Below the pieces are notes generated by a model. It ran no database searches, was not told where the DNA came from, and was given only the letters and a program-made list of their open reading frames with translations. A DNA stretch of 64,000 nt from the NCBI GenBank assembly GCA_036676455.1, contig JAKFCW010000101.1, positions 5,211-69,210 of the forward strand, read 5' to 3'. Below, in pieces: positions 33,801 to 62,271 of this stretch. Positions within the stretch are counted from its first letter, which is position 1. Every line of letters begins with the position of its first letter. Origin of the DNA: Candidatus Sericytochromatia bacterium (lineage in GTDB: Bacteria > Cyanobacteriota > Sericytochromatia > S15B-MN24 > UBA4093). Made by a program: the position numbers and the translations under genes.

Positions 33801-34378
33801 AGGGCGTGGCGTGGAAGGACTACGACCGGACCCTGAGCACCCTCAGCGTGATCGACGGGGCGCTCTATGCCGTCAGCGACAGCGCCCGGATCCATGACCT
33901 GCGGGAGTCCTCGTACCGGGCGATCGCCACCAGCCTCTACTACCAGTTCGGCCTGTACGGCTACTCGGGCATCCATGGGGATCCGTCGGGCTGGGGCCTC
34001 GTGAAGGGGACGGACCTCGTCTCGTACGGCCGGGGGGATTCGCACTCGACCTACGTCGTCGAGACGGCGCTCGACGGCTCCATGCATCGAACCTACCGGT
34101 TGATCGGCATCACGCTCGGAGGCATGGTGGATGACGGAGCGGGGACCGTTTATCTGACGCACGTCGGCCACGGCACGATCTACCGCCTGGCAGGCAACAG
34201 CTTCGCGCAGTTCGCCTCGGGGCCGTACGGCTCGCTGGATCGCATGTACGGCGGGATCTCGTATCACGGCGGCAAGATTTACCAGGCCATCTACACCAGG
34301 CACTGGATCGACCAGATCGACGCCACCAGCGGCGCCCGGACGACCCTGAAGCTGGGCCTGGTTACCCCGGAGTTGTAG
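30869..34378 (+). CDS. Giant lipoprotein, class A (A1): lipobox-CPRPL + CarboxypepD_reg-like + linker + IPT/TIG + about 800 aa of NHL-type beta-propeller repeats. About 1169 aa.
   Basis: ATG at 30869 lies 6 nt after GAGGAGG. The leader is MIDIRLLPAFRRFLAFALIMTLALALTAC-PRPL. Motifs are GATVSLIELTTGNTVSTTRTDADGKFLL, LYYFEAVKGL, RVRTIASY, MTTALSVVVSL, DRDPLRW, an IPT segment (ISYLDPPNAVALETIDLVGSNF...RITVRVPPTAVTGHVRL), then DGHSVV. NHL-like blades follow (LYVTDAANHKLYAV, LYVANAGANNVVAI, CYVSNHRGNSVYRV, LYVADRLTNGVYRIN). It ends LGLVTPEL. Confidence 0.85.
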   Translation: MIDIRLLPAFRRFLAFALIMTLALALTACPRPLTPPMGLPGDGSVIQAADHVEGRISFGFRHTQAGIKEDVAPGATVSLIELTTGNTVSTTRTDADGKFLLTYSNGFKPKSGDLYYFEAVKGLSGGTSAPNAAGSDAVRVRTIASYWSGGWVTLTSGNPGTSILISPMTTALSVVVSLRQATSKKLDPTALFGAIKAGRPAGGYPDTVQMSSPELVQMVQRAYDLVVGSLEKDRDPLRWIQLSSADLDFNTVTLPELPFSISYLDPPNAVALETIDLVGSNFEGEPVVDFQADGGQLARATELSVSSDLTRITVRVPPTAVTGHVRLSIGERTLTGPIFRLDTRDGHSVVDARGNLYAANRGLGTVAILEPVSGSDRTSVRSLITDLGEPSALTFGLSGFGALFVASTGGVVWNASLDVPLDAATPISFLSKASYSTGGAADPGGMAFRNKPGDPGHGVLYVTDAANHKLYAVRAGGGVAQLVTLTGVALSQPRGLSFGPDGRLYVANAGANNVVAITLTSDTTGTSEDFVSGFSMPWGIAFDNRGNCYVSNHRGNSVYRVPVTSEPGVTPIAYGNVGAFSSIPSPAGLDADASGYLYVADRLTNGVYRINTLAESQQIAFGMNAPTSTWVDADGLFLLTDSGRLLHSNKLDSTGVLKVVAQGLLTAKGLVRDTDGNFYTHQAALDAITQIRPDGSTVQVVVGVSTSDGAGLSIRGDKLYLRSNTSFDPGGDSYAVQGEVLEFTLVRGGDGKVSHVSGPTARLRTPVDKLTGLSGGGGTLYTMNPRTKTFFAMTVAGTTNQSVGRSSTMTRLKSDPSLADPKNLLVVNGKIWVADYAGGGNGSIRVYGLDGTFEQEIADIETPTHLAYDGTYVYANSYTGGYLRAFETTAPYAKVAARERTGFSNPRPFAFEGTTLYVNEWGPNRISKIDNYAASTVITPLLTQSDRNDLAVMAGTIYVTSGASVYRITDDGSGWTQEGVAWKDYDRTLSTLSVIDGALYAVSDSARIHDLRESSYRAIATSLYYQFGLYGYSGIHGDPSGWGLVKGTDLVSYGRGDSHSTYVVETALDGSMHRTYRLIGITLGGMVDDGAGTVYLTHVGHGTIYRLAGNSFAQFASGPYGSLDRMYGGISYHGGKIYQAIYTRHWIDQIDATSGARTTLKLGLVTPEL

Positions 34379-34388
34379 GAGGAGGCCC

Positions 34389-37300
34389 GTGGTGAGAACG
34401 CTTTTCGTGATGCTGCTCGCCCTGGTGCTGGCAAGCTGCAAGCTGCCTTCCCTCGTGCCGCCGCTTTCCTCGTCGGGAGTGGCGCCCGCGCGCCTGGCCA
34501 GCTCGACGCAGATCGCGGGCCGGATCGCCGCGTCGAGCGGAGTGCAGGCGAGCATCCTGGACATCGCCAAGGGCGCTTCGGTCGCCCTCATCGACGCGGC
34601 CACGGGCCTCACGCTCTCCACCACGGTCACCAATCCCGATGGCACCTTCTTCCTGCAGTTCGCAGAGGGCTTCGTCCCGGTGGACGGTCGGTCCTACATC
34701 CTCGAGGCGTTCAAGGGCATCAAGGGGGCGAATCCGGATTACAACCAGGCGGGCGCCGACACCATGCGCCTGCGGACGCTGCTCACCTACCGCGAGGCGG
34801 AGAAGGGCTGGGTGAGCCTGGCCAACGCCGTGCCGGGGCCGATCGACCTGACGATGTCGACCACGGCGGTTTCGGTGGCGATCGCCCACATGAGCCAGGC
34901 CGGCACTCCCGTGGATCCTACCCTCTTCATCGGCTGCTTGAACGGCGATGCCTACGACGAGGCTGCCCGCCCGCTCTCGCTGGTCGCCTTCACGGCCCTG
35001 CGCGCGGAGGTGGAGAAGGCCATCACCGAGGACCGCGACCCCCTTCACTACGTGGTCTACGACAGCAAGACCGGCTCGTTCCTGAGCTCGTTCGTGGCCT
35101 TCGCGGTCTCCGAGATCACTCCGAGCAGCGGCAACATCGGGACCCTGCTCGACATCCGGGGCGACGGCTTCACCTCCGGTCCGCTCGAGATGGTCACCAT
35201 CAACGGGACCCAGGCCGAGATCCAGCCCGGTACCCTCGCGGAGGACCGGGTGGTCGTCAAGGTCCTTCCTGGCACGCGCACGGGCCCCGTCTCGATCGTG
35301 ATCAACGGCGTCGTCCAGGCGGGCCCGACCTTCACCGTCACGATGACCGACGGCCACCGCTCGGTCCGCGGCGAGACCCTCTACGTGGCCAACCCCGCCT
35401 GGGGAACCGTGGCCGAGGTCAAGCCGAACGGCGAGATCCGGACCCTGAGATCCGGGCTTTCGACCCCGCGGCAGGCCGTCGTGGGCCCCGACGACCTGAT
35501 CTACGTCTCCAACGAGGGGGACAACACCGTCGTCCGCTTCGACGCGGCCGGGGGCGCCTTCGAGACCTTCTCGACGGCCGTCACCAAACCCTACGGGCTG
35601 GCCTTCGACGGCGCCGGCAAGCTGCATGTCTCGAGCCGGCAGGCCGCGGGCTCGGTGGTCAAGCTCGATGCCGCGGGCAATGCGGCCGCCACCGTCACGG
35701 GCCTCGCCCTGCCCGAGGCGATCGCCTTCAACGCGGGGGGCGACCTCTTCGTCGCCGAGGACGCCGGCTCCATCCGCCGCGTTCCCGCCGGAAGCCTCAC
35801 CCCGGAGGCCTACTCCTTCGTCGCGACCCCCATGGGCCTGGCGGTCGACTCGGCGGGTGACCTCTACGTCGCCAGCAACGACAACTCCGTCGTCTACCGG
35901 ATCGGGGCCAACCGGGCGCTCACGGTCTTCGCCATGCTCAACCGTCCCGGCGGTCTGACCTTCGATCCGAACGGCAACCTCTACGTGTCGGATACCGAGC
36001 GCAACCTCATCAACCGCGTCTCGCCCTCGGGCGACGTCCGGGTGCTCGCCTACGGCATCAGCATGCCGCGCGGCCTCGCGGTCGATCCGACGACCCACAA
36101 GGTCTACGTCTCCCTCAACCGCTCCAATGCCATCCTGGAAATCGACGGGGATGTCCTGCGGCCCTTCGTCACCGGCATCGCCAACCCGTTGACCCTCACC
36201 TACCGCGGGAGCGGCCTGTACATCGGCCAGCCCGAGATCGACACCATCTCCTTCGTCACCACGCCGGGAGGCCGCCTCTCCACCGTCGCGAGCGGCATCT
36301 CCGAGGCCAGTGGCGCGGATGCCTCCGCGGACGGCACGGTCTACGCCGGTCGCTGGGGACGCGAGGACGCATGGCAGCCCAACCGCAACCCCATCTACGA
36401 GGGCGGCTTCCAGAGCCTCGATCCGCTGGGCGTCCTCCAGCCCATCCGCTATCCCTACGTCCGAAAGACCCGCTTCCGGGCCATCGCGCCGGACGACACC
36501 GTCTACGAATCGAGCCACGACGAGCGGACGATCGCGAAGATCACCCCGCATGCCAACGGCTCGCGCACGGTCGAGCAGCTTTGGCGCTCGGACACCGAGC
36601 GCCCTCGCCACATCGTCCTGGACGCCTCCGGCAACCTCTACGTCTCCTTCCTCGATCAGGACAAGGTCGTGCGCTTCCGCCCGCCAGCCTACGCTCCGGA
36701 AGCGATCACGGGCTTCAGCCAGCCCTTCGGCCTGGCCTTGCACCCGGGGGCCGACGCCGTCAGCCTCGCGGACGACAAGCTCTACGTCTACAACCGCGGC
36801 AATGGGTTCCTCTCCTGGATCAACAACCCGTCGGTCGCCGCGACCAAGACCGCCGACTCGGCCGGCCCCTCGACCGGCATCGCCACCGCCGGGGACACCT
36901 ACGGGCTCGCGCTCGCCCTGAAGCCCGGAGACGACGGCGTCTACCTCGCGGCCCAGAGGAAGGTCGTGCGCTACGACATCGGCGACGGGCTCTTCGCGTC
37001 CTACCTCACCAAGGACCTACCGATCGCGATCACCGAGATCAAGGCCTGGCCCGACGGCACGCTCTTCGCTCGCCCGGAGAACGAGGACTTCGTGACCATC
37101 TCGCCCTCCCTGGTCGTGACCCAGTCGAGGCTGCGCAGCTATGGCGGAGCCAAGAACTGGAAGGACGACGTGGGGCGCACCCTCTTCCAGGGTGATACCT
37201 ATGGCCACCAGATCTGGAGAGGCTCCGAGACCTTCCTCGGCGCGCTCGGCCGGACCTTCGAGGTCGCGGTCGACGGCTCGAGCTACCTCTATCTCGCCGG

Positions 37301-37661
37301 GGCCGGGACCCGCGGGGACACGGGCACCGACTACGGCGGCCTGTTCCGCTACGAGCTCTCCGGGGCCTCTCCCAAGGAGCTCTACGTCCCGATCGGCAAG
37401 GGGCGGGTCTACTCTCTGGTCGTGGCTTCCGACCGCACGGTCTACGCCGGCTCCGGGGATCAGAAGATCTACCAGGTCGACCTGAACGGAGCCGTCACGC
37501 CCAAGTGGTCGCTAGGCACCCTCCCCTACGGCCTCGATCGCGATGGCGACACCCTCTGGGTGGTGGGAGAGAACAACCGCATCTTCTCGTTCGCGCGGAC
37601 CCTGTCCGAGGCGCTGACCCCGCCGTCCCAGACCTACGGCATCATGGAGCCCGTCTTCTGA
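34389..37661 (+). CDS. Giant lipoprotein, class B (B1): [15 protein letters not shown] + the same N-module + NHL-type beta-propeller repeats. 1090 aa.
   Basis: GTG at 34389 follows AGGAGGAGG, 10 nt after the A1 stop. The leader is [24 protein letters not shown]. Motifs are [60 protein letters not shown], an IPT segment ([22 protein letters not shown]...[17 protein letters not shown]), then DGHRS. Blades include [42 protein letters not shown] and [14 protein letters not shown]. It ends YGIMEPVF. Confidence 0.85.
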
Positions 37662-38032
37662 TGCGCATGCTCGTCACCCGCCTCGCCCTCGTCTCCCTCT
37701 GCCTGCTCCTCGGCTGCGCCGAGGATGACGGCTTGCTCGCGGGCCGCCCCTCCGCCCGGGCCTCGAGCCTCCCGGCTGACGGCTCGCCGACCCCCACCCC
37801 CACCCCGACCCCCACTTCGGACGCCACGGCGACGCCCACTCCGGCGCCGACACCGACTCCCACCCCGTCGCCTAGCCCCTCGCCCAGCCCGTCTGCCAGT
37901 CCGTCCCCCCCGCCGAGTCCCGCGGTGAATCCCACCCCGCCCGCGACTCCCGACCCGGAGCCCAGCGAGTTCCAGCCGGGCGAGGACGACGGGGGGATCG
38001 TCGGAGACGGCGACGTCGGCGGCGGGGCCTGA
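37661..38032 (+). CDS. Small Pro/Thr-rich lipoprotein (S1), 123 aa
   Basis: The ATG overlaps the B1 stop by 1 nt (TGATG). The leader is [38 protein letters not shown] / SPSPSPSP low-complexity region follows, then an acidic tail. Confidence 0.75.
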
Positions 38033-38339: not shown

Positions 38340-38353
38340 ATCGCTAGCCGGTG

Positions 38354-38439: not shown

Positions 38440-38540
38440 AAAGTTAGCGCTTGTCCGGATCACGGACGTCAAACCGGCCACTCCTTCTTCCACCCTCTGG
38501 AACCTTGCATGGGAGTCGCCGGTACCATGCGGGAGGGTGC

Positions 38541-41500
38541 ATGCGAACTTTCGCCTCAGCGATCACTTCACGGCGAACCTGGCGGATCGTTCTAACGGTC
38601 TGCCTGCTGGCACTGCTGACGGCGTGTCCTCGCCCCCTCGTTCCCCCCGCCTCGACTCCCGGCCTCGGTGCTGATCCCAGCCTCTCGGCCACCGAGCAGG
38701 TCCTGGGCCAGGTGGACTTCGGCGGCCAAACAGTGCAGGCCGATATCTCGGACGACATCGCCCCGGGCGCCACCGTCGCTCTGATCGACGTGCAGACCGG
38801 GCAGACCCTGAGCACCACCCGCACGGACGAGAACGGCCGCTTCGTGCTCGTGTACTCCAACGGCTTCAAGCCGGTATCGGGAGGGCTCTACTACTTCGAG
38901 GCCCTCAAGGGCCTGAAGGGTTCCAGCGGGCTTCCCAACGCCGTAGGCGCGGACGTGGTTCGGGTCCGGACCATCGCCAGCTATCGCAACGGCGGCTGGG
39001 TCACCCTCACCAGCCGGACTGTCACCACCTCGATCCTCATCAACCCCATGACCACGGCCCTGTCGGTCATCGTCAGCCTGCGGCAGGGCTCCGTCGCTCC
39101 TCTCGACGTCAGCACCCTCTTCGGCACGATCAAAGCGGGCCGTCCGGAGGGGAGCTATCCCGACACGCTGGACCTGCCGGATCCCTCGCTGGTACCGCTG
39201 GTCCAGAGCGCCTACGACCTGGTCATCGACGCCCTTGCCAAGGAACGGGACCCCGTCCGCTGGATCACGCTCGATAGCGAGAACCCCAACGTCGTCCGCT
39301 TGCCGGACATCCCCTTCTCGATCAAGTTCCCGGATCCCGGCGTCCAGGAGATCGGCAAGGAACTCGATCTGGTCGGGGTCAACTTCGCCCCGGAAGCCGC
39401 ACAGAACCTGGTCTCTTTCCGCACCGACGGCGGCTGGATCCCCGCCACGGTCGTCTCGGTCCTGCCTGACCTGACCCGCCTCAAGGTCATCGTCCCCGAC
39501 GGCGCGGTCAACGGTCCCATTCGCCTGCAGATCGGCGACAAGATCCTGGTCTCGGATTTCAACTTCCAGCTCGCCGTCGTCGACGGCCACAGCGTCGTGC
39601 GCCCCTTCGGAGGCATTTCCTACCTCTTCGTCGCCAATGCCAGCCTCGGCACCATCGCCTACGTCTCCCCTTCGGGCGAGGCCACTCCGCTGATCAAGAA
39701 CCTCTCGAGCCCGCAGGCGCTGACCTTTGGCCCGGATGGATTCCTCTACGTCGCATGTGGCGGCACCACGAAGCGCGTCGTCCGCTTCGACGTCACCCTC
39801 GACGGCAACGGCAACCTCGTGCCGGGCATCCCAACCGATTACTCCGGCTTGCTTTCCAATCCCTCGGGCATGGCCTTTGATCTCTCCGACCCCAACCCCG
39901 ATCCCAGTCAGCGGCTCTATCCGCTTTACGTCGCGGACCGTGGCCTCAACCAGTTGCACCGGGTGGAGTGGACGGCGAACCGCACCGCGGTCCAGCCCAC
40001 CGCGCTCTTCCCCGTGGCAGGGCTCAATGAGCCGCGCGGCCTCTCCTTCGGTGCCGATGGCCGCCTCTACGTGGCCAACGCCGGGGCCAACAACGTCCTC
40101 GCCGTGTCCAAGCTGAGCGGCGAGAGCGAACCCTACCTCTCGGGTCTCGGCAAACCCTGGTCCGTGGCCTTCGACAGCAAGGGCAACTTCTACGTCAGCA
40201 GCAACACCGGCAACTCCATCTTCCGGCGCGACGCCGTCTCGGGAGTCCTCTCGGCCTTCGCGAGCGTCCCCAGCCCCGGTGGCCTGGACGCCGACGCCTC
40301 GGGTTACATCTACTGCGGAGACAACGTCAGCAACCAGATCTACCTGGTCAACTCGCTGGGCGAGACGCGCATGGTCGCCACGGGCATCAGTTCTCCGATG
40401 GGCATCCACGTCGACGCGGACGGCCTCTTCGTGGTGACCGGCAGCGGCCAGTTGCTCAAGGTCACCCACGACACCGGCTCTCTCTCCGTGCTCGCGGATG
40501 GCCTCACGGGCGCGGGCGACCTGGGCCGCGACTCCGCGGGCAACTTCTACGTCTTCCAGAAGAGCCTCGGTCGCATCTCCCGGATCACCCCCGCGGGGAT
40601 CATCAGCGTCTTCCTCAACGTCACGAACACCTCCGACATCTACGTCAAGGGCAACAAGCTCTACCTCAAGAAGACCAACACCCTACGCCCTGACGGCAAC
40701 TGGTCCGGCATGGGAGGAGTCGAGGTCCGGGATCTCTCCGACCGGGAAGTCGTGCAGGACTTGAAGGTCAGCTACATGCGCGATGCTATCGGCATGGCCT
40801 TCGATACCACTCCGGCCGGCGCCTACCGCGATTGGCTCTACGTGGCCAACCTCGACGATCGCTCGGTCGTGAGGCTCAAGCCGGAAGGCGACGGAGACCT
40901 CAAGCGGCACAAGGTCCATCGCTTCCTCGACCGCGTCAACGCCCCCGAGCTGGATCGGCCATGGGACGTCTGGGTGGATCCGGCCAGCGGCAACGTCTGG
41001 GTCTCGGATCAGGGCACGTCCACCGCCGATGATGGCCTTTACGTCTACAACTCAGCCGGTACCCGGATCGCGGACTATTCGGGCATCGTCGATCGCCCGC
41101 TGAAGTTCGGTTACGACGGCTCGCGCCTCTACCTCGCGAACTACGGAGGCCACGAGGTCATCCGGATCGACCCGACCAGCGGGGCCGAACTGGGGGCGAT
41201 CGCCGTCCCCTACCCCCGCTCGATCGCCTTCGACACGGCCAGCAACCGCATGTTCATCGGGACCTGGGACGGCTCGAGCGGCAGCCGCCCGATCAAGAAG
41301 GTCGACGCTTACGCCACCGCGCCGGTGATGGCGGACTACTACGACCTGCTGGCCTACGACCTGGTCTTCGAGAACGGCAACCTCTACACCGCCGCCGGCT
41401 CCTCCTACAAGATCTCCGCCGACCTGACCCGCCACGATCGCTTCATGTCCTCGCGATCCACCCTCTACGACTTCGCGCGCCGCGCCGACGGCAAGATCTA

Positions 41501-42035
41501 CCACATCACCCGCGACGGCCGCCTGGGCCGCTGGACCACGGACTGGGACGGGGAGATCGCCGCCATGATCGAGTACGCGGGAGGCGGCCCCGTGGTGGTG
41601 GATGGCCTCGGGAACTGGATCTCGGCCTTCATGACGGGCTGCTCGGCCAAGGACATCCTGCTGGGCCGGCTCGACGACTCCGACCCCGCCAGCTTCCAGA
41701 TCACGCCGATCCGCTTCGGAACGGACGACTGCTGGGTGCCGGAGGCCAACATGGCCAGCGACGGAGGCGACCTGGTCTTCATCACGGCCAACCCCAAGGC
41801 GGAGCTGGTCCGCTTCAACACCACGACCTACGCCTTCCATCGCCTCGGCAAGCGTTTCGGCATGACGGATCGCAGCCACGGCGTCAGCGTCTACAACGGC
41901 AAGGTCTACCAGACCATCATGACCCGCCACCAGATCGACGTCTACGACGCCAACGGAGCGTCCGGAGGGGAAGGGTCCAACCCGCCGGCATACCTCGAGA
42001 CCCTGCCCGTCGGGCTGGTCGCACCGGAGCTTTAG
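38541..42035 (+). CDS. Giant lipoprotein, class A (A2). About 1164 aa.
   Basis: ATG at 38541 follows GGGAGGG. The leader is MRTFASAITSRRTWRIVLTVCLLALLTAC-PRPLVPP. It has the same module order as A1 (GATVALIDVQTGQTLSTTRTDENGRFVL, LYYFEALKGL, VRVRTIASY, ERDPVRW, IPT, DGHSVV, NHL-like blades such as LYVANAGANNVLAV, FYVSSNTGNSIFRR and IYCGDNVSNQIYLVN). It ends VGLVAPEL. Confidence 0.85.
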   Translation: MRTFASAITSRRTWRIVLTVCLLALLTACPRPLVPPASTPGLGADPSLSATEQVLGQVDFGGQTVQADISDDIAPGATVALIDVQTGQTLSTTRTDENGRFVLVYSNGFKPVSGGLYYFEALKGLKGSSGLPNAVGADVVRVRTIASYRNGGWVTLTSRTVTTSILINPMTTALSVIVSLRQGSVAPLDVSTLFGTIKAGRPEGSYPDTLDLPDPSLVPLVQSAYDLVIDALAKERDPVRWITLDSENPNVVRLPDIPFSIKFPDPGVQEIGKELDLVGVNFAPEAAQNLVSFRTDGGWIPATVVSVLPDLTRLKVIVPDGAVNGPIRLQIGDKILVSDFNFQLAVVDGHSVVRPFGGISYLFVANASLGTIAYVSPSGEATPLIKNLSSPQALTFGPDGFLYVACGGTTKRVVRFDVTLDGNGNLVPGIPTDYSGLLSNPSGMAFDLSDPNPDPSQRLYPLYVADRGLNQLHRVEWTANRTAVQPTALFPVAGLNEPRGLSFGADGRLYVANAGANNVLAVSKLSGESEPYLSGLGKPWSVAFDSKGNFYVSSNTGNSIFRRDAVSGVLSAFASVPSPGGLDADASGYIYCGDNVSNQIYLVNSLGETRMVATGISSPMGIHVDADGLFVVTGSGQLLKVTHDTGSLSVLADGLTGAGDLGRDSAGNFYVFQKSLGRISRITPAGIISVFLNVTNTSDIYVKGNKLYLKKTNTLRPDGNWSGMGGVEVRDLSDREVVQDLKVSYMRDAIGMAFDTTPAGAYRDWLYVANLDDRSVVRLKPEGDGDLKRHKVHRFLDRVNAPELDRPWDVWVDPASGNVWVSDQGTSTADDGLYVYNSAGTRIADYSGIVDRPLKFGYDGSRLYLANYGGHEVIRIDPTSGAELGAIAVPYPRSIAFDTASNRMFIGTWDGSSGSRPIKKVDAYATAPVMADYYDLLAYDLVFENGNLYTAAGSSYKISADLTRHDRFMSSRSTLYDFARRADGKIYHITRDGRLGRWTTDWDGEIAAMIEYAGGGPVVVDGLGNWISAFMTGCSAKDILLGRLDDSDPASFQITPIRFGTDDCWVPEANMASDGGDLVFITANPKAELVRFNTTTYAFHRLGKRFGMTDRSHGVSVYNGKVYQTIMTRHQIDVYDANGASGGEGSNPPAYLETLPVGLVAPEL

Positions 42036-45760: not shown

Positions 45761-45782
45761 GGTCACGATGAAAGAGGAAACC

Positions 45783-50700: not shown

Positions 50701-51284
50701 ATCGCCTCACGCGCAACGACTCCTGGATGAACCAGTACTCCTCCTACCTGCGCTTCAACGTCGATCACAACGGCTCGCGCATCTTCGTCACGGACAACTC
50801 CTGGTCCCACCTCGCTCACAACGGCTCGTACAGCGCCGCTTTCGCGGGGCTGCGCGGTTACTCCGCCTCAGGCATCGGCACCCCCATCGTCCTCAACAAC
50901 TCCATGGTGTCGTACGCCCACATCGGCTACAGCGCCAACGCCATCGTCGTCGACTCCGAGCACGATGGGATCAACCAGCGCACCCGCAACGGCCTGGGCT
51001 ACCTCGGAGCGGCCACCAGCAACGGTACGGACACCGCCTTCTTCGCCTCCACGACCGGCGGCACCATCTACAAGTGGAAGAAGGACGCCGTCACCGGCAA
51101 GGGCGTCGCCACCACGGTCGTCAGCGGAGGCTACTCGGGATTCGACTACGTCCGCGGTCTCAGCTACTACAACGGCTACCTTTACCAGCCGATCCGCGAG
51201 AAGCACGTGATCCGGAAGGTCAATGCCGACAACGGGGCCGACAAGGTCGAACTCAAGGTGGGCGTCGTCGCCCCCGAGCTCTAG
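47739..51284 (+). CDS. Giant lipoprotein, class A (A1', closest to A1). 1181 aa.
   Basis: The leader is MRITSFIQALARLNALVLAAVLLLVLTAC-PRPLVPP. Motifs are GATVSLIEVATGNTVTTTRTNADGTFVL, IYYFEAIKGL, VRVRTIASY, DRDPLRW, IPT, RVATRDGHSVVDAAGKVYVANRDLGTVAV (compare A1: RLDTRDGHSVVDARGNLYAANRGLGTVAI). It ends VGVVAPEL. Confidence 0.85.
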   Translation: MRITSFIQALARLNALVLAAVLLLVLTACPRPLVPPIGLGGAQSLTLDAESGVTGRVEFGARATQATIKDDVAPGATVSLIEVATGNTVTTTRTNADGTFVLKYSNGFKPVNDSIYYFEAIKGLSGGTDQPNAVGADAVRVRTIASYRRGGWVTLSSRGVSTAISITPMTTALSIVVSLRSTTNRPLDVNTLFGTIRLGQASDGFNDTVDIADPALVAMVQSAYNLVLDSFNKDRDPLRWILLNAADASHNSVLLPDVPFSIVSLSPAEQEAGGEIQLIGSNFASVLADNEVAFQTNNDATVSASVLAVSPDLARLTVKVPLTAVNGPVTLTIGQGDKRKTLLGPAFRVATRDGHSVVDAAGKVYVANRDLGTVAVIGPNATTGKTEIRALIESLDKPGALTFAPGDYKTLYVALGGTTRKVRKYDITAQPITGVDYSGAGGVANPSGVAFQVSTGALYLTDATANKLYVVAAEGGAAQEVALTLPLGVSLNGPRGLSFGPDGKLYLANSGANNVLAIDLSAAAIGSGAVYQTGLSSPWGLAFDNKGSFYVSNNKGNSIFTVPVTSEPGVIPLVYASLTSFASIPNPGGLDADSSGYLYVADNVSNGVYRVNPAAESRQIGFGISYPVATWADAEGVFTLTQEGRLLQIDTQNALSVYAEGLTASAGLVRDIRGNFYTYNTVLKTLILVRPDGSSVQVMSALDAYYPELSINNARDRIYFRRRNSDISAMGQVDAYDLNLDAGAPYMPHFNVGPDLLAAPNQVYKSPMRRVIAIAADRTAAGPRRGEYYVLQDNTNSEQAVMRVTSVDSNTYDAVRIVNNADGRLKDPSDIAIDSEGKIWVADRIGASGTGGLIIYDANGAYLDEIAVARPVRLAYNGTHVVASCYDSGEVRFYNADKTLAQNLSGIPNPVGVAFSNTAPHVNAMFVNSHSTGKVYKFDNYAALGTANVAASLAANDYYDTGNNNDIEMVGNALIFTSGGQARRLEADRLTRNDSWMNQYSSYLRFNVDHNGSRIFVTDNSWSHLAHNGSYSAAFAGLRGYSASGIGTPIVLNNSMVSYAHIGYSANAIVVDSEHDGINQRTRNGLGYLGAATSNGTDTAFFASTTGGTIYKWKKDAVTGKGVATTVVSGGYSGFDYVRGLSYYNGYLYQPIREKHVIRKVNADNGADKVELKVGVVAPEL

Positions 51285-54200: not shown

Positions 54201-54710
54201 GGCTGGAGCCGCTTCCGTGGCTTCACCTTCGATCCGTCGTTCAATACGTCCACTAACCGCAACACCGGCTACTACGCGATCGAAGATCAGTACTCCGGAT
54301 TATCGACCTTCCGCTCGCAGACGACGACCCGCGAGGTGCAGCTCAAGCCCGATCCCGATCCCCTCAAGTCCGGCGTCCTCTACGTCGCCTCGCCGGATAG
54401 TGAGGGTGCCGGCGGCATCCTGCGCATCGATCTCGACACCCAGGAGGAGCTGATGATTCCCCTGCGGACCTACTCGATCGGCCTGTACGGCGCCGACCTC
54501 TACGCGGGAGCCTCCGACAACTGGATTTACCACGTCGACGCGGCCGGCAAGCATACCTCGAAGTGGAATCTCTCGACCCTCCCGTACGGGCTCGACATCT
54601 ACGGGGACACCGTCTGGGCGGTGGGAGCGAACTCGCTGGTCTTCGAGCGCCCCATCGGGGCGGGAGTGGCCAAGGATCACAAGTTCGGCATGATGGGACC
54701 GGTGTTTTAG
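51297..54710 (+). CDS. Giant lipoprotein, class B (B1', closest to B1). 1137 aa.
   Basis: The leader is MKRLTTLVLLAFLLTSC-RLPSLLP. The core [66 protein letters not shown] parallels B1. It ends FGMMGPVF. Confidence 0.85.
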   Translation: MKRLTTLVLLAFLLTSCRLPSLLPTSMTSGDGAGGTAARQTVVLKGRIEEPRSVMATPADIANGATIALIDAESGLTLGTSLSDPLGNFFLSFGDGTNLVDGRAYYLDVMKGVRLDANQPDSPFNQAGADTLRLRNILFYQEASMAGSAGWKSLMNGTAGNVVNVGNRSTTMSIALALKRQAGETVVLSDFAGALEADIENDPAWTMGGLTQPVYTTLKSIVLEAIANDRDPIQYAVYDEGSKTFMNPWIGFSIASVTPAEGPINQVITISGEGFDLGDPTVAVNGREAQVLTRTAQVITAKVMPGSRTGPVSVKIGTTLQAGNTFKVNFHDGHSALYDRTVLGQPVRMLYVANPAWNTIVEVSPDGAITKVWDDTTIPELKTPRQVAVWNGKLYVSCDPSGTANDKILQLDPTNPAAKVVYSTAVQHPYGLAFDLDGFLHVSSYQSAGSVVKLDAAGAVVAQYAGLASPRGLAFDYLGNLFVAEEGGRVVKLTAPAMTAETWGLLPSPLGLAVDSAGDLFVASNTNDVIYRISSLRAMSVFAMLNKPGGLTIDERGYLYVSDTSQNLVRRISPSGDAKIYAYGISNPRGLAVDPTNGTLFISLNKSNAILKVENGALKPFVTGIANPMTITFRGKGLLIAHPETHTISYAERDGKISTLATGLEYPGGADQAADGAGNLTGPLYAARFGDMESPFSARLPRYDSYEVSNGSHNGVDVIGGASPGLRRWLYRQQLNYIAVDAAKNIYAIHSGDRTLTKIAAEPGGGNASRKVTRIAGPRSPYTFGGNPGWVSVDANSNIYVVVPSEHLIYRFKPTGGTYAMDTITGFNSPWGIAFSDTTPQAMFVSNTADGKIRRVLDAVNDAAAQPTTTFEIPASTGVRGLAYMASGVAGTGTLYMANGTSIMMAGISGNAYTAASYATYFSGLPGSCSYLYAKPLTGEVFAWANATFAYVVPPDLPLVPYVFKDYTGWSRFRGFTFDPSFNTSTNRNTGYYAIEDQYSGLSTFRSQTTTREVQLKPDPDPLKSGVLYVASPDSEGAGGILRIDLDTQEELMIPLRTYSIGLYGADLYAGASDNWIYHVDAAGKHTSKWNLSTLPYGLDIYGDTVWAVGANSLVFERPIGAGVAKDHKFGMMGPVF

Positions 54711-55040: not shown

Positions 55041-55077
55041 CGCGCATGCGTCGAGTTCCGTCCAGAAAGAGGTTCGC

Positions 55078-55269
55078 ATGAAATCCCTGTTTCCCATCCT
55101 CGGTCTGATCCTGGCGACCGCCATGGCCTTCGGGGCCGGGTGCGCGGACGATGGCGCACTCTTTGGCGTGGGGGGCAGCGGAGGCAAGAAAGCGTCCGCC
55201 GCTCCCCAGGCGAGCCCGGCCCCATCGGCCAGCCCGTCGGGCACCGGAGGCTCGATCGTCAACGATTGA
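55078..55269 (+). CDS. Very small lipoprotein (S'3), 63 aa
   Basis: AAAGAGG RBS. It translates as MKSLFPILGLILATAMAFGAGC-ADDGALFGVGGSGGKKASAAPQASPAPSASPSGTGGSIVND. Confidence 0.65.
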   Translation: MKSLFPILGLILATAMAFGAGCADDGALFGVGGSGGKKASAAPQASPAPSASPSGTGGSIVND

Positions 55270-55297
55270 GTTTGGGCTCCCCGCTCACGATCAACGC

Positions 55298-55345
55298 GCG
55301 AAGCAGCCCCCGCCGCCGGCGGGAAGGGCTGCTTCGCTCCTTTTG
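55298..55345 (+). terminator. Rho-independent terminator
   Basis: A 12-bp stem gcgaagcagccc / gggctgcttcgc is followed by tcctttt. Confidence 0.7.
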
Positions 55346-55366
55346 GTGCGTATTTCGGTGGTTTCC

Positions 55367-55375
55367 GGGTAAGAG
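55367..55375 (+). promoter_or_regulatory. Putative -10 element (GGGTAAGAG)
   Basis: About 60 nt upstream of the A2' start. Confidence 0.25.
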
Positions 55376-55436
55376 AACCTCGATTACTCGCTTGCTCTCG
55401 AAGGGCCCTCGCGCGTCCCGGTGGAAAGGAGCTCGA

Positions 55437-58400
55437 TTGCTCGCAAGTGCACATGCTCGACGCTCGAGCCTCGCCATCGTCTACGTGCTGCTGGCCGCGC
55501 TGGTTGCGCTGCTGACGGCCTGTCCCCGTCCGCTGCTCGCTCCGACCGGAGCCGGGGGCGCGCAGGGCATGGCCCTGGATCCGGAGGCGGCCGTTTCCGG
55601 GCACGTGGATTTCGGCGCCCGAAAGACGCAAGCCACCATCAAGGACGACGTCGCCCCCGGGGCCACCGTCTCGCTCATCGAGGTCACCTCCGGCCAAACC
55701 CTCGCGACCACCTTCTCTCAGCCGGATGGTCGCTTCGTGCTACAGTTCTCGAATGGCTTCAAGCCCGTCTCCGGGGGGCTCTACTACTTCGAGGCCGTCA
55801 AGGGCCTCTCGGGGCCGACCGGCCAGCCCAACGCCGTGGGGGCGGATGCCGTCCGGGTCCGGACGATCGCGAGCTATCGGAGGGGCGGTTGGGTGACCCT
55901 CAGCACGAAAGGCGTCACCACCAGCATCTCGCTCTCCCCGATGACCACCGCCCTCTCGGTCGTCGTCAGTCTGCGCACCGGCACCGCCAAGAGCATCGAT
56001 CCCACCACGCTTTTCGGAGCGGTCCGGGCGGGCCAGGGTGAGGGCAGTTATCCCGATGCCCTCACCCTTCCGGACCCGACCCTCGTCCCACCCTCCATGG
56101 TCTACGAGGCGTACGATCTGGTGGTCGACGCGCTGGCCAAGGAGCGGGATCCGATCCGCTGGATCACCCTGGATAGCGCTGATTTGACGTCCTTGAGCTT
56201 GCCGACGATTCCCTTCTCGATCAAGTACCTCGTGCCGTCGATGCAGGAGGTCGGCCAGAAGCTGGACCTCGTGGGCGTCAACTTCGCCCAGAACCCGGCC
56301 GATAACAAGGTCTCCTTCACGACGGACGGCGGCTGGGTCCCGGTCACCGAGATCGGCCCCGTCTCGGCGGACCTGACGCGCCTGACCGTCACGGTGCCGA
56401 ACGGGGCCATCAGCGGCCCGGTTCGCCTCGAAATCGGCGGCAAGATGCTCTCCACGGACCCGGACAAGTCCTTCAGCCTCGCCGTCATCGACGGTCATAG
56501 CGTCGTACGGGTCCTGGACCGAAAAGCCTATCTCTTCGTGGCGAATCCGGCGAAGGGCACGATTTCCAAGGTCACCCCCGAGGGCGAGGTGGTTCCTTTC
56601 CTCTCGGGCTTGACGAGCCCTCAGGCCCTGACCTTCGGGCCGGATGGCTGCCTTTACGTCGCCTGCGGAGGGGCCAAGAACCAGATCGTGCGCATCACGC
56701 TCACGGCGGCCCTGACGGCTGCGAGCAGCGACGTCCGGGATTACTCGACCCCCCTCGTCAATCCGACGGGTCTGGCCTTCGACATGACCCAGGTCTCGAC
56801 GCAGGCCACGGTCGCCAGCGCTCCGTTGTACGCAGTGACGGGCGACGGCCAGCTTTATCGCTTGCCGTGGACCGGAGCGCTCGAGAACGTGGTGCCGGTC
56901 CTGGTTCCGCTCCAGGGGGCCAGCTTGAGCGGCCCCCGGGGGATCTCCTTCGGTTACAAGGACGACGACTGGCGCTTGTGGATTCCCAACGCGATCGCCA
57001 ACAACGTCGTGATCGTCGATCCGGCCACCGGTCAAGCCACCGTCGAGCTTTCCGGCATCGGGAAACCCTCCGGCGTCGCCTTCGACAGCAAAGGCAACCT
57101 CTACATCTCCAGCAACACCGGTAACTCCATCTTCAGAAGGGAAGCCGGCCAGAGCGAGCTGAAGCCCTTCTCGAGCGTACCCACTCCCGCGGGCCTGGAT
57201 GCCGACGCCTCGGGCTACATCTACTGCGCCGACAACGTCAGCAACCGCATCTACATGGTCAACTCCCAGGGTGAGAGCCGCATGCTCGCCACCGGCATCA
57301 GCTACCCGCTGGGGGTTCACGCCGACGCCGACGGCATCTTCGTCGTCACCGAGATCGGCCAGATCCTGAGAATCTCGCACGGCAGCGGCGTGGTCTCGCT
57401 CTTTGCCGACGGCCTCTCGAATCCCATGAGCCTGGGACGCGACGCGGACGGCAACTTCTACGTGCATCAGCCCGCCCTGAAGCAGATCACCCGCCTGGCC
57501 ACGGTCACGGATGCCTCCGGCCGACTCACCGGCATGATCGACTCCTACCTCCCCGTCTCCAACGTCCGCGACATCCACGTCGCGGGCCGCAAGCTCTATC
57601 TCCAGAAGACCCTCATCAAGAATCCCCAGGGCGAGGACGAGGGCCGAGGCGGCGTCGAGATCCGGGATCTCTCCGACTGGGGAACCACGGAGTCCCTCTA
57701 CACGGGCTTCATCCGGGACGGCGTCGGCATGAGCTTCGACAACTCCACGGGGCCCTTCCAGGGCGCCCTCTACCTCGCGAACTTCACCGACAACTCGATC
57801 GTGCGCATGGACGCAGACGCGGCCAACCCCCCGCGAGGCAAGATCCGGCCCTTTCTCAACGGCACCCAGAACCCCAAGCTGGTGCGCCCGAACGACGTCT
57901 GGGTTGACCCTGCCAACGGCAACGTCTGGGTTTCCATTCAAGGCATCAACACGGATACGGATGGCTTGATCGTCCTCGACTCGGCCGGCGTCGAGCTCAA
58001 GGACTACTCGACGCTGGTCAATCGTCCGCGCAAGCTCGGCTTCGACGAGACCCACCTCTACCTCACCAACGAGGGCGGAAACGAGGTCATCCGGATCGAC
58101 CGCACCACGGGCGCCAAGCTCGCCTCGTACGCGGTGCCCAAGCCGCTTTCGCTTGCCTTCGATACGGCCACCGACACCATGTACGTGGGCTCCAACGATG
58201 GCCAGATCTACCGGATCACCGGGTACCGCACCGCGACGCCCGCTGCGGCCGCTCCCTTCCATGCGCTCCATGCCTACGATCTGTATTTCCACACCGATAA
58301 CTACCTTTACGCGGCGAACTCCTCGACCTGGAAGATCGAGAAGGACGGGTCCACCCGCTTCGTCTACCGCCGGCATTACGGGCAGATCTACGACTTCGCG

Positions 58401-58937
58401 AAGCGCGCCTCGGACGGCAAGATCTTCCACCTCACGCGAGATGGCCGCTTCGATGCCTGGACCAACAACTATGTCACCTCCTCGGGGACCATGTTCACGG
58501 GAGGCAGCTCGGCCGTTCCGGACGGCAAGGGCAACTGGGTCTCGGTCTTCGAGACGATCTGCGGAGGCAAGAGCCTCATCGTCGGCGACCTGGCCGGCAC
58601 GTTCCAGCAGTATGCGGGCAGCCGGATCGGCATGACGCAGTGCTGGGTCACGGTCGGGTCGATGACCAGCGATGGCGACGGGAAGGTCTTCGTGGTGAGC
58701 AATCCGCAAGGTCGCCTGCATCGTTACGACGTGGCGACGGGAGTGCTCGAGCACCTGCCCAAAACCGGCGGAGCCTACAACGACGGGGACCAGGGGCTCG
58801 GCGTCGCGGCCTACAACGACAAGGTCTACGTGACGATGCGCAACCGGCACGTGGTCGACGTCTTCAACGCCGATGCGGCGGCGGACGGCGCCTTCATCGA
58901 GACGTTGAACGTCGGCCTGGTCAACCCCGAGCTTTGA
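55437..58937 (+). CDS. Giant lipoprotein, class A (A2', closest to A2). About 1166 aa.
   Basis: TTG at 55437 lies 5 nt after AAAGGAG. The leader is LLASAHARRSSLAIVYVLLAALVALLTAC-PRPLLAP. The track ORF start at 55140 would span the terminator hairpin. Motifs match A2 (LYYFEAVKGL, ERDPIRWITLDS, LAVIDGHSVVR, TSPQALTFGPDGCLYVACGG, IYCADNVSNRIYMVN). It ends VGLVNPEL. Confidence 0.8.
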   Translation: MLASAHARRSSLAIVYVLLAALVALLTACPRPLLAPTGAGGAQGMALDPEAAVSGHVDFGARKTQATIKDDVAPGATVSLIEVTSGQTLATTFSQPDGRFVLQFSNGFKPVSGGLYYFEAVKGLSGPTGQPNAVGADAVRVRTIASYRRGGWVTLSTKGVTTSISLSPMTTALSVVVSLRTGTAKSIDPTTLFGAVRAGQGEGSYPDALTLPDPTLVPPSMVYEAYDLVVDALAKERDPIRWITLDSADLTSLSLPTIPFSIKYLVPSMQEVGQKLDLVGVNFAQNPADNKVSFTTDGGWVPVTEIGPVSADLTRLTVTVPNGAISGPVRLEIGGKMLSTDPDKSFSLAVIDGHSVVRVLDRKAYLFVANPAKGTISKVTPEGEVVPFLSGLTSPQALTFGPDGCLYVACGGAKNQIVRITLTAALTAASSDVRDYSTPLVNPTGLAFDMTQVSTQATVASAPLYAVTGDGQLYRLPWTGALENVVPVLVPLQGASLSGPRGISFGYKDDDWRLWIPNAIANNVVIVDPATGQATVELSGIGKPSGVAFDSKGNLYISSNTGNSIFRREAGQSELKPFSSVPTPAGLDADASGYIYCADNVSNRIYMVNSQGESRMLATGISYPLGVHADADGIFVVTEIGQILRISHGSGVVSLFADGLSNPMSLGRDADGNFYVHQPALKQITRLATVTDASGRLTGMIDSYLPVSNVRDIHVAGRKLYLQKTLIKNPQGEDEGRGGVEIRDLSDWGTTESLYTGFIRDGVGMSFDNSTGPFQGALYLANFTDNSIVRMDADAANPPRGKIRPFLNGTQNPKLVRPNDVWVDPANGNVWVSIQGINTDTDGLIVLDSAGVELKDYSTLVNRPRKLGFDETHLYLTNEGGNEVIRIDRTTGAKLASYAVPKPLSLAFDTATDTMYVGSNDGQIYRITGYRTATPAAAAPFHALHAYDLYFHTDNYLYAANSSTWKIEKDGSTRFVYRRHYGQIYDFAKRASDGKIFHLTRDGRFDAWTNNYVTSSGTMFTGGSSAVPDGKGNWVSVFETICGGKSLIVGDLAGTFQQYAGSRIGMTQCWVTVGSMTSDGDGKVFVVSNPQGRLHRYDVATGVLEHLPKTGGAYNDGDQGLGVAAYNDKVYVTMRNRHVVDVFNADAAADGAFIETLNVGLVNPEL

Positions 58938-58941
58938 GGAG

Positions 58942-61900: not shown

Positions 61901-62271
61901 GGGTCTACGTCGGAAGCTCGATGAACGATGAGTACACCGGGGTCTATCGCTTCGATCGCGATACCGGCGAGCAATGGCTCATCCGGGGTCTGGGATCCTC
62001 GGGGGCCAGCGCCATCGCCGTCGGGCCTGACCGGACGCTCTACGTGGGTGGGGGCAACGGCAAAATTTACCAGGTGGACGGCAACGGCGCGGCCTCGGCA
62101 GCCTGGGTGACGACTCCCGCCATTCCAAGCGATCGCCTCTACGGCCTTGACATCACGGCCAACGGCACCAAGCTCTGGGCGATCGGCAGTTCGCGCACCA
62201 TCTACGGCATCACGGTGGCCGGCAAGACCGTCGAGCTGGTCAAGCCGGGCCTCTCGTCGCCACGCTTCTAG
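58942..62271 (+). CDS. Giant lipoprotein, class B (B2', closest to B2). 1109 aa.
   Basis: The leader is MTMPFMRVLNLLLVVLLAGC-RLPSLLP. Motifs match B2 (AYYLDAIKGI, NQAGADAVRLRTVL, QHRDPLQF, VDSYDGHRAKLGDTLYVANFDRAKIVKV, YGIANPRGLAVDGAGNLYVSLSQSNAVLKV). It ends KPGLSSPRF. Confidence 0.85.
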   Translation: MTMPFMRVLNLLLVVLLAGCRLPSLLPHAATPLDGTSAAMPAHVLQGRIVSPPQVQASLTDIASFASIALIDSETGYTAATTVSGANGTFTLRFEAGFSPVDGRAYYLDAIKGIKETGPATDPNPLFNQAGADAVRLRTVLFHQSMPEGWVSLKNAAPGAIYISRGTTAIAMAVFLKQQSQAIAWSSLIGALHVETDAYTEVPASLTSTEFQDAYAIVDEAITQHRDPLQFLAFDSAVGFVNLYNGHSVDSLEPDHGAINQQIVIKGDGFLTPGDVTVTFNTTETVPPTGANRTKDRLVVTVPPGARTGPVLVKIGTVTQAGPAFTVDSYDGHRAKLGDTLYVANFDRAKIVKVSPDGVVEDFADVPAGPTQLAIYTDDSDPLQPIERLFVACETADQIVTLDLREPAPIAQPFVNLTKPAGLAFLGNVLYVSSKSLKTVSRFNLDKSSAGDALTGFEAPAALAFDFESQLFVADGNKVLRVNLTTGTSLVWIYLSSPRGLSVDSGGTLYVANYDDGVIYRILVIPPTNRRAAYVFARVPNPTGIMLDAAGYMFAASETQHQISRISPLGDMKPYAYGIANPRGLAVDGAGNLYVSLSQSNAVLKVEQNGSYRTRPFVTGIPNPHSITWRNDKLYLAHRDAGVVSSATAAGSMKTEAVGFTMPGGADVAADGTIFAGRYGASWHLEVWPPDPTHVHYNRGGLESYANGVISLDRGFVRTSLKGLVGLDDGTRYVLTSQNTLLELKATNGPSSSYRYRQLDAYAQTPLRIERDGAGNHLYVLLEGSKDVLRYEKLGDSWVKSVLDLDPALDKTGFTNPTRMTFDAAGDRLYVLDGGVLKRVEGATTATPALSTKAPGELWSVSLTGANSISYKNSRIYVTYGNTWIRSLDSTLASPTVSDYAQGPVNLTGVIAHPVSDYLFAYQGEDGYKVPPSGVFEYLTGYGGTAFAYTPDGTFMRDYVSYMPLYFGKTTLPGLVQTHEVAVDGDRVYVGSSMNDEYTGVYRFDRDTGEQWLIRGLGSSGASAIAVGPDRTLYVGGGNGKIYQVDGNGAASAAWVTTPAIPSDRLYGLDITANGTKLWAIGSSRTIYGITVAGKTVELVKPGLSSPRF

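Follow-up and report, generated by a model that had tools for sequence, protein, structure and literature searches.

The conserved C-termini of paired propeller lipoproteins in a Sericytochromatia bacterium are probably truncated inter-blade connectors

The window analysed herein, a stretch of 64,000 nucleotides from a Candidatus Sericytochromatia assembly, carries four pairs of genes, each encoding a class A protein followed by a class B protein (Table 1). With a signal peptide ending in L-[AST]-[GAS]-C as the lipoprotein criterion, both classes are putative lipoproteins by their lipobox, which reads LTAC in class A and LASC, VTGC, LTSC or LAGC in class B and is conserved in the homologs. The lipobox is followed by a CarboxypepD_reg-like sandwich, a helical domain, an IPT/TIG domain and then about 18 blades. 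All of the A and B proteins of the window except A4 scored 23.9 to 55.8 bits against the NHL model (PF01436; cut-off 20), and A4 matched the related Vgb_lyase, SGL and SBBP propeller models; the Pfam matches of A1 were NHL, Vgb_lyase and CarboxypepD_reg. Class A and class B were aligned by hhalign with a probability of 100 (columns 14-1154 versus 7-1095), and they are ancient paralogs over their full length, with about 18 four-stranded blades in each. The literature on Sericytochromatia lipoproteins yielded nothing relevant, and the paired propeller lipoproteins A and B of Sericytochromatia constitute an undescribed family.

The probable start of A2 is the Met at 38541, immediately upstream of the signal peptide. 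Since 54711-55269 is taken up by the small lipoprotein genes c and d, the true start of A4 probably lies near 55400-55440, again immediately upstream of the signal peptide. In B4, GGAG is better spaced from the second ATG, at 58948, than from the first. The stop-to-start spacers between A and B measure 10, 9, 12 and 4 nt in pairs 1 to 4, as in a preliminary description of this DNA, which placed each B start within 4-12 nt of the A end; the two genes are apparently translationally coupled in the window. The adjacency of A and B was observed at every Sericytochromatia locus with a complete A gene and downstream sequence. The window also encodes a secretin, GspF, a PilM-PilN fusion, a GspC-like gene, GspE and pseudopilin genes.

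Table 1. Genes of the A/B pairs, their C-terminal tails and a peptidase gene in the window
Feature	Description	Coordinates	Strand	Basis
A1	putative class A lipoprotein, 1175 aa, lipobox LTAC/PRPL	30851..34378	+	ORF; Pfam matches
A1 tail	G-L-V-T-P-E-L, then TAG stop	34355..34375	+	translation
B1	putative class B lipoprotein, 1090 aa, lipobox LASC/KLPSL	34389..37661	+	ORF; Pfam
B1 tail	G-I-M-E-P-V-F; stop TGA overlaps ATG of small lipoprotein gene c	37638..37658	+	
A2	ORF from 38451	38451..42035	+	ORF; Pfam
A2 tail	G-L-V-A-P-E-L	42012..42032	+	translation
B2	1125 aa	42045..45422	+	ORF; Pfam
B2 tail	G-L-S-Q-P-R-F	45399..45419	+	translation
A3	1181 aa, AlphaFold2 model made	47739..51284	+	ORF; Pfam
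A3 tail	G-V-V-A-P-E-L	51261..51281	+	translation
B3	1137 aa, AlphaFold2 model made	51297..54710	+	ORF; Pfam
B3 tail	G-M-M-G-P-V-F	54687..54707	+	translation
A4	ORF from 55140	55140..58937	+	ORF
A4 tail	G-L-V-N-P-E-L	58914..58934	+	translation
B4	1109 aa	58942..62271	+	ORF
B4 tail	G-L-S-S-P-R-F	62248..62268	+	translation
M61 peptidase	with PDZ domain	3689-5437		

The C-termini read G-[LV]-V-x-P-E-L in all four class A proteins and G-[ILM]-x-x-P-[VR]-F in all four class B proteins, just as the preliminary description had reported from the translations, and the same class-specific ends were found in a fifth A/B pair on another contig (C114). The motif L-W-[AV]-[VI]-G that it gave for the residues preceding the class B ends stands except for its first position and is correctly [LV]-W-[AV]-[VI]-G, given the V-W-A-V-G of B3. 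Among 24,052 ORFs of the 4.0-Mb assembly, searched for terminal PEL, terminal PxF and the full motifs, G-Φ-x-x-[PA]-[ED]-[LMI]-COOH occurred only in the five A genes and G-Φ-x-x-[PT]-x-[FY]-COOH only in the five B genes. The remaining matches were three, namely a hibernation-factor-like ORF, a short 81-aa ORF and an antisense ORF, versus about five predicted from composition alone. Sharing of the tail with other proteins of the genome, which had been raised as a possibility, was not observed: only the A/B family carries it, and paralogs encoded in the same cluster end quite differently. The eight-tail pattern exceeds chance. Synonymous codons at the Gly, Pro, Leu and Phe of the tail vary, and therefore the constraint acts at the protein level.

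The tails are retained in about 80 homologs, nearly all of them from Sericytochromatia MAGs and metagenomes, as a conserved element of the family would be expected to be from the preliminary description, and the ends of these homologs follow the same two patterns. Neither terminal extension nor truncation past the tail was observed in this set, and the homolog alignments have no indels between strand D and the C-terminus. When residues were counted in the 34 distinct A tails and 28 distinct B tails, Gly at -6 was invariant and Pro at -2 was present in 29 and 27 of them, respectively; Glu at -1 was observed in 32 of the 34 A tails, and position 0 of class B was Phe in 27 of 28 and Phe or Tyr in all. 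In the ranking of 7-mer conservation, the class A tail was first of 475 in the C-terminal 480 residues, and the class B tail was ninth of 431 in the C-terminal region. Tail conservation is therefore higher than that of the surrounding C-terminal blades and equals that of the best internal connectors, so that the notion of tails without extra conservation fails for the former comparison and holds for the latter. The total lack of C-terminal extensions is stricter than a plain structural linker requires.

Several results relate the tail to the repeat itself. First, a regular-expression survey of all eight proteins showed that internal blades start with G-[LIF]-x-x-P-x-G-[LIV]-[AS]-[FV]-D, for example GLSSPWGLAFD at 534 of A3 and GISNPRGLAVD at 584 of B3, and in the class A alignment the spacing of the tail pair G1175/P1179 is G+4P, as it is for the invariant pairs G534/P538 and G623/P627. 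Second, with a PSSM derived from 33 internal connectors, all eight tails ranked between 3 and 652 of 9203 6-mers (top 7%), the B4 and B2 tails being third and fourth. Third, in a blade HMM the last blade and tail of B4, A4 and A1 are collinear with a blade and its trailing connector. Fourth, the class A C-terminal-domain profile matches the remote multi-blade NHL proteins P0228, P0184 and P0186, in which the tail columns are occupied by internal connectors running on into the next blade (...KGLSSPE/FIAIDASG, ...MGLNTP/QYIAIDSS and ...AGLSAP/YGVAVDGG, respectively). In addition, the hhalign match between class A and class B extends to the ends, and therefore both kinds of tail represent one ancestral element. 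Judged from these sequence comparisons, the tail is a homolog of the G-Φ-x-x-P-x connector that leads from strand D to strand A of NHL blades. A phmmer search of PDB sequences with the C-terminal 72 residues of B2 returned only chance matches to sedolisin. The Glu of class A (32 of 34 tails) is without counterpart in the connector motif, the equivalent internal position being variable.

AlphaFold2 models of A3 and B3 were obtained from shallow alignments (36 and 27 sequences), with mean pLDDT values of 85.8 and 87.0; the last block, comprising 11 residues in A3 and 7 in B3, has a mean of 93 in both. In both models, DSSP assigned a succession of about 18 four-strand meanders. Residues 1170-1171 in A3 and 1126-1128 in B3 form strand D of the last blade; after it comes the tail, whose penultimate residue (E1180 and V1136, respectively) is in a beta-bridge. 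The models thus disagree with a free-peptide tail, one of the arrangements that the preliminary description had considered. The closing beta-strand, which it had also named, comes closest among its options, in that the tail is ordered after the last blade; it is probably not a classical velcro strand, since both models build the last blade from four strands, A to D, that are contiguous in sequence. When the whole A3 model was compared with the PDB using Foldseek, generic six-bladed propeller arrays (LRP2, LRP6) were matched with low TM-scores. These matches carry no information on the tail.

Known six-bladed NHL propellers (PF01436), among them the sensor domain of PknD (1RWI) and the Pizza proteins designed from it, share with the A/B blades the connector and strand A motif G-L-x-x-P-x-G-V-A-V-D. 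The class A profile matched Pizza7H and Pizza6 with E = 3e-45 to 1e-29 and PknD with E = 3.5e-25, at residues of about 394-690, and the PknD match to the class B C-terminal profile reached position 124 of 126; in the comparison of this profile with PDB sequences, the last blades resembled PQQ/BamB-type 'Cake' blades. Unlike PknD and Pizza, the A/B proteins have about 18 blades, placed behind a lipobox and the sandwich, helical and IPT/TIG domains. Pizza6 opens with a strand D that would complete the last blade, a velcro-type closure, whereas the A/B proteins end after a complete last blade and a connector. A precedent for the ring is the NHL propeller of NHLRC2, in which the terminal strands lie in separate blades, the ring is closed without a velcro strap, and the D-A connectors are on the 'cup' face (PMC6107167). 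However, NHLRC2 runs on into a further C-terminal domain, and a conserved terminal connector with a free carboxylate, as in A/B, is not described there (PMC6107167).

Herein, we propose that the tail is probably not a tag but a truncated strand D-to-A connector with a role in cis, that of a cap or closure for the last propeller. The NHL connector between strand D and the next strand A reads G-Φ-x-x-P-x-(G/aromatic)-Φ-A-Φ-D, and the tail would be the final copy of this blade-opening motif, cut after the first anchor residue of the missing blade. In both classes, all four strands (A to D) of the last blade are present, and G-Φ-x-x-P-x-Φ-COOH comes after them. The connector might run inwards from the rim to the axis of the last propeller, along the face that the D-A loops form, and the tail might dock in cis where the last and first blades meet. 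There, the terminal side chain, aliphatic in class A and aromatic in class B, may fill the would-be pocket of strand A and so cap or latch the ring without classical velcro strand exchange. The difference between E-L and x-F in the last residues might reflect pockets that diverged after the A/B duplication, and the strict end point might reflect a buried or otherwise constrained terminus. Of the interpretations offered in the preliminary description, the closing of the propeller is the one retained in this proposal, and its tag options are not.

Another explanation is that the tail acts in trans as a partner-binding peptide, inserted with its free carboxylate from A into the cup of a B propeller or the reverse, and thereby locks a heterodimer. 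Such a role would fit the adjacency and apparent translational coupling of A and B, kept across Sericytochromatia, as well as the class specificity of the last two residues, which are conserved to the exact terminus, and the Glu, conserved in 32 of 34 class A tails and missing from internal connectors; moreover, D-A loops are on the usual ligand-binding face (PMC6107167). However, the monomer models order both tails (pLDDT 93, beta-bridge), which would be unexpected if the partner were needed, and the tail is contiguous with strand D, with neither a flexible spacer nor indels between them. We therefore regard a trans peptide as rather unlikely, although the conserved A-B pairing means that a heteromer involving the tails could still exist. 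It is quite unlikely that the tails are not passive caps but functional C-terminal plugs that enter a propeller cup with their free carboxylate and class-specific last two residues, either for gating of a binding site in cis or for A-B assembly in trans. If they were, they would represent a prokaryotic counterpart of the recognition of C-terminal peptides by propellers, perhaps with a link to export through the adjacent T2SS/T4P-like system. The C-degron receptors of the KLHDC family use the cup of their Kelch propeller as binding site. In this family, a strictly defined C-terminal peptide is recognised by the receptor (PMC11568203). This eukaryotic ubiquitin-ligase system has no sequence relation to A/B and serves as an analogy for the trans reading only.

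The tail might also be a signal for sorting, secretion or processing, addressed to a T2SS/T4P-like machine, a surface-lipoprotein export route or a PDZ-type C-terminal protease. The secretin, GspF, PilM-PilN, GspC-like, GspE and pseudopilin genes and the M61 peptidase gene of the window are in line with this idea, and in MAG LC028 the PilMN and GspE genes lie immediately upstream of the A/B pair. However, the T2SS neighbourhood is missing at the LC003 locus, and a PDZ peptidase gene was found beside no other A/B locus examined. To our knowledge, T2SS substrates have no linear C-terminal signal, and the Pro at -2 would disfavour the addition of the tail as a strand to a PDZ domain. LPXTG, PEP-CTERM and GlyGly-CTERM resemble the tail in being short conserved motifs near the C-terminus of exported proteins, but there a transmembrane helix and a basic tail follow the motif, and many unrelated proteins are served by a dedicated sortase, whereas the A/B chains stop at the motif and a single family carries it. 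The stop codon comes right after the tail, without a helix, transmembrane segment or cleavage-site context, and the models order it. With the motif confined to five A/B pairs, the sortase-like or sorting tag proposed in the preliminary description finds no support, and a signal of this kind is very unlikely.

A constraint on nucleotides, in which the P-E codons CCG GAG supply the Shine-Dalgarno sequence of the downstream B gene, is extremely improbable. In the fifth pair, GGAG within CCG GAG does lie 8 nt upstream of the B start, but a separate GAGG or GGAG is present in the spacer at all four junctions of the window, A3 and A4 use CCC GAG and so lack GGAG, and synonymous positions vary. In addition, the class B tails are equally conserved without a consistent purine-rich motif, and the seven residues are conserved at the protein level across 35-90% identity. 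This origin of P-E is ruled out by the junction sequences. Finally, the likeness of class B to the outer-membrane (BAM) beta-signal, defined by a terminal aromatic residue, hydrophobic residues at -2, -4 and -6 and a position in the last strand of a membrane barrel, is limited to the terminal Phe (Phe or Tyr in 28 of 28 distinct tails) and has next to no probability, given that the alternating hydrophobic pattern is absent, with Pro at -2 and invariant Gly at -6, that the B3 model comprises propeller blades with the sandwich and helical domains and no barrel, that B has a lipobox, and that in the paralogous class A this element has E-L as its last residues; the resemblance suggested in the preliminary description does not extend further.

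If the tail is a truncated connector, the finding is mostly ordinary: a tag-like C-terminus on exported proteins of 1100-1200 residues would be an inter-blade linker of the repeat itself that persists at the chain end, and the effort of hunting a dedicated sortase, protease or receptor would be saved. The two terminal patterns serve as markers of class A and class B, respectively, and can be used to judge the 3' completeness of a gene model. Two residual oddities are the strict end point and the class A Glu, and the tail may thus offer a cheap handle on non-velcro closure and on an A-B complex in this family.

The window, in which the G+C content is approximately 67%, contains eight very large genes at 30.8-62.3 kb that form four head-to-tail pairs, A1/B1 to A4/B4. 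Each encoded protein starts with a signal peptide and lipobox (LTAC-PRPL in class A and L[AT][SG]C-[KR]LPS in class B), and Pfam identified NHL and related propeller repeats in all of them; B2 and B3 also have an IPT/TIG domain, and A1 and A2 gave a weak match to a CarboxypepD_reg-like domain. The translations end exactly as the preliminary description had given them, with GLVTPEL, GLVAPEL, GVVAPEL and GLVNPEL in A1 to A4 and GIMEPVF, GLSQPRF, GMMGPVF and GLSSPRF in B1 to B4 (these last seven residues are termed the tails), and the distances from A stop to B start, described as 4-12 nt, were 10, 9, 12 and 4 nt for pairs 1 to 4. The motif L-W-[AV]-[VI]-G reported before the class B ends is present, but its first position is corrected to [LV] because B3 has VWAVG. 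A fifth pair, ending in ...VGLATPEI (A5) and ...YFGLMEPSF (B5), was found on another contig of the assembly (4.0 Mb, 150 contigs). The class motifs are confined to the ten A/B genes when all 24,052 assembly ORFs with 80 or more residues are considered, and the proposed genome search for other bearers of such ends thus returned the A/B family alone; a looser common motif gave three further matches (a ribosome hibernation-factor-like ORF, an antisense ORF and an 81-aa ORF) versus approximately five expected by composition. Synonymous codons at the G, P, L and F of the tails vary among the four copies, and therefore selection acts on the protein.

The conservation of these ends extends to homologs from compost and other metagenomes at 35-93% identity. 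In a survey of one genome per prokaryotic species, full A/B pairs were observed in Sericytochromatia or Tanganyikabacteria MAGs and in two other MAGs, one labelled 'Cyanobacteria bacterium' and one named only 'bacterium', and an A gene runs off the contig in a MAG labelled Stenomitos sp. The protein family itself is undescribed and, among the loci examined, is restricted to uncultured Sericytochromatia-type MAGs, some of them labelled 'Cyanobacteria bacterium' or 'bacterium'. In the most distant pairs, with 15-20% identity in the C-terminal domain, B still directly follows A and the ends are still class-specific: ...[FY]GLS[AG]A[ED]M or ...GLGGPEL in class A (...GLSLAGI, with Gly at -1, at one locus, L005) and ...GL(NG|HS|QQ|HA|VA)[PT]xF in class B. 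Counting distinct tails (34 of class A and 28 of class B), G at -6 is invariant in both classes. In class A, 29 tails have P and five have A at -2, 32 have E at -1, and the final residue (position 0) is L in 27 tails, M in four and I in three; in class B, 27 tails have P at -2 and the remaining one has T, and 27 end in F at position 0 and one in Y. No extension or truncation at the terminus was observed in any homolog compared. An additional class A relative from a later search ends in APAL, and the Glu of class A is therefore not absolute.

Several results identify the tail as a copy of the inter-blade connector, the NHL linker between strand D of one blade and strand A of the next. First, profile-profile comparison of the classes (36 class A and 27 class B sequences) gave a probability of 100 over columns 14-1154 of 1155 and 7-1095 of 1096; the two classes are therefore full-length paralogs of ancient origin, whose ends are aligned to each other, with the common pattern G-Φ-x-x-P-x-Φ-COOH. 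Second, every canonical internal blade of these proteins opens with the tail pattern, as G-[LIF]-x-x-P-x-G-[LIV]-[AS]-[FV]-D (GLSSPWGLAFD at A3 534; GISNPRGLAVD at B3 584), and the G+4P spacing of the tail pair G1175/P1179 recurs in G534/P538 and G623/P627, which are among the few invariant columns when the class A sequences are aligned. Third, a position-specific matrix from 33 internal connectors, picked by the strand A sequence after each, placed every one of the eight tails in the top 7% when ranked against 9203 other 6-mers from the A/B proteins, with B4 and B2 at ranks 3 and 4. With modest scores, an HMM of an internal blade and its trailing connector was collinear with the last blade and tail of B4, A4 and A1, the tail falling on the trailing connector. 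The strongest of the four connector tests was a C-terminal profile from the last 290 residues of 15 class A sequences, down to 15% identity, in which only P910, Y1149, H1156 and the tail G1175 are invariant. When 1.84 billion representative proteins were searched, the proteins whose best match reached the last profile column (column 285 of 285) did so at their own C-terminus and belonged without exception to the family. The best match ends one or two columns short of the profile end in a few remote NHL proteins with multiple blades, where the tail columns are internal connectors leading straight into the next blade (P0228 ...KGLSSPE/FIAIDASG; P0184 ...MGLNTP/QYIAIDSS; P0186 ...AGLSAP/YGVAVDGG). 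The tail is therefore a D-to-A connector plus the first anchor residue of an absent next blade. The P-E-F of P0228 shows how P-E-L and P-x-F are both accommodated at that position.

The class A tail is the most conserved of 475 7-mer windows in the C-terminal 480 residues, and the class B tail ranks 9 of 431; their information content is 3.65 and 3.27 bits, versus 3.2-3.8 bits in the best internal connectors. Conservation in the tails is therefore higher than around them but no higher than in the connector motif, so that the extra conservation questioned in the preliminary description exists relative to the surrounding C-terminal blades and disappears relative to the best internal connectors. 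AlphaFold2 models built with family alignments (A3, mean pLDDT 85.8, pTM 0.69; B3, 87.0 and 0.71) contain, after the lipid anchor, sandwich, helical and IPT domains in that order, followed by approximately 18 consecutive four-stranded meanders. Sequence comparison matches the first meanders to the NHL propellers of PknD and Pizza, which are six-bladed; in fold, the complete model is similar to arrays of six-bladed propellers. The last class B blades are more like PQQ/BamB-type blades. In both models the last blade has four strands contiguous in sequence, no low-confidence spacer separates it from the tail, the last 10-residue block has a mean pLDDT of 93, and the penultimate residue (E1180 in A3, V1136 in B3) lies in a beta-bridge; internal connectors are modelled alike, with strand A beginning at the Pro. 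Thus, the tails are modelled as ordered docked segments following a complete last blade, and the free peptides considered earlier are not seen.

Herein, starting from a tail that is homologous to connectors, conserved and ordered, we propose with moderate confidence a docking site and a capping role. The last blade's connector would turn back toward the axis of the last propeller, across the face of the D-A loops, and dock in cis where the last and first blades meet, closing the ring without strand exchange. The class-specific last residues might match pockets that have diverged since the A/B duplication, and the fixed end point might reflect a buried or otherwise constrained terminus. NHL propellers closing without a velcro strap, with D-A loops on the 'cup' face, are known (NHLRC2, PMC6107167), and the closure of NHLRC2 resembles that proposed for A/B proteins. 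It is unlikely that the tails instead act in trans in an A-B complex: the universal gene pairing, the exact terminus and the class A Glu, which the connector reading leaves unexplained, would suit such a role, but the monomer models already place the tails confidently. The exact end point and this Glu are residual oddities, so that a functional plug or trans latch retains a low probability. A sorting, secretion or processing signal, among the tags first suggested, is very unlikely; a T2SS/T4P-like gene set lies nearby and also precedes an A/B pair in one other MAG, but only one family has the motif, no further sequence comes after it, paralogs in the same cluster have different ends, and the tail is modelled as ordered. 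The likeness of the class B terminal aromatic to an outer-membrane beta-barrel signal was discarded, a BAM beta-signal being ruled out by residue pattern and fold, and the junction sequences rule out a ribosome-binding-site constraint.

Residues after the lipobox Cys are also class-specific and kept in homologs (C-P-R-P-L in class A; C-[RK]-L-P-S-[LVI] in class B), and from sequence this stretch would be a better candidate than the C-terminus for a linear sorting signal, if any exists. A small lipoprotein gene (c) lies 0-13 nt after every B gene, and its product combines a lipobox with a Pro/Thr-rich tail and, after the Cys, a conserved C-A-[ED]-[ED]-(E)-D-G-L; a second (d), in cassettes 2 and 3, contains ...FGAGCAEEDGLFGVGG[TS]GGKKA.... 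Each repeat thus comprises A-B-c(-d) rather than A-B alone. The long A4 ORF opens approximately 100 codons before its signal peptide, overlapping small lipoprotein genes. Just upstream of A2, a 48-aa ORF with a class A-type signal peptide and lipobox (FVTACPRPL), then a stop, is probably a duplicated 5' remnant. The T2SS/T4P-like set lies upstream of the cassettes, and PilMN and GspE directly precede an A/B pair in MAG LC028 (L001). Other paralog classes share the N-terminal module of A/B and have their own conserved ends: a 710-aa class ends in ...NYTLLPY, with similar ends in other MAGs, and a pair downstream of B4 ends in ...[FL][HN]YG[TS]F. No link to the cassettes was found for the SET-domain genes or the M61/PDZ aminopeptidase of the window.

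Table. Positions of features (nucleotides of the window unless residues are stated)
Feature	Position	Strand	Remark
Two tandem SET-domain genes	556-1841		
M61 glycyl aminopeptidase with PDZ domain	3689-5437	-	
T2SS/T4P-like gene set	10566-22991		
Pseudopilin	10566-11201	-	
Secretin	13162-15054	-	
GspF	16405-17943		
PilM-PilN fusion	18393-20048		
GspC-like gene	20048-21208		
GspE	21201-22991		
Other paralog classes	28074-30206; 62761-64000 and next gene on contig		also at loci L017, L032
Small lipoprotein genes (c)	37661-38032; 45431-45760; 54711-55040; ~62285 onward		
48-aa ORF	38193-38339		
A2 start	38541		probable
Small lipoprotein genes (d)	~45770-45971; 55075-55269		cassettes 2 and 3
Three genes between cassettes 2 and 3	46062-47690	-	one with N_methyl Pfam match; other two pseudopilin-like by N-terminal sequence only
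Class-specific post-Cys stretch, examples	47820-47840; 51342-51365		N-termini of A and B genes
Long A4 ORF opening	55140-55440 region		real start probably near 55400-55440
B4 start	58948		probable
A3 last-blade strands	residues 1142-1144, 1147-1152, 1157-1162, 1170-1171		AlphaFold2 model
B3 last-blade strands	residues 1096-1102, 1105-1110, 1115-1119, 1126-1128		AlphaFold2 model

Taken as a propeller end-cap, the conserved extreme C-termini of this family would come down to a repeat connector, a feature of known kind; this is a tidy and mostly ordinary result.
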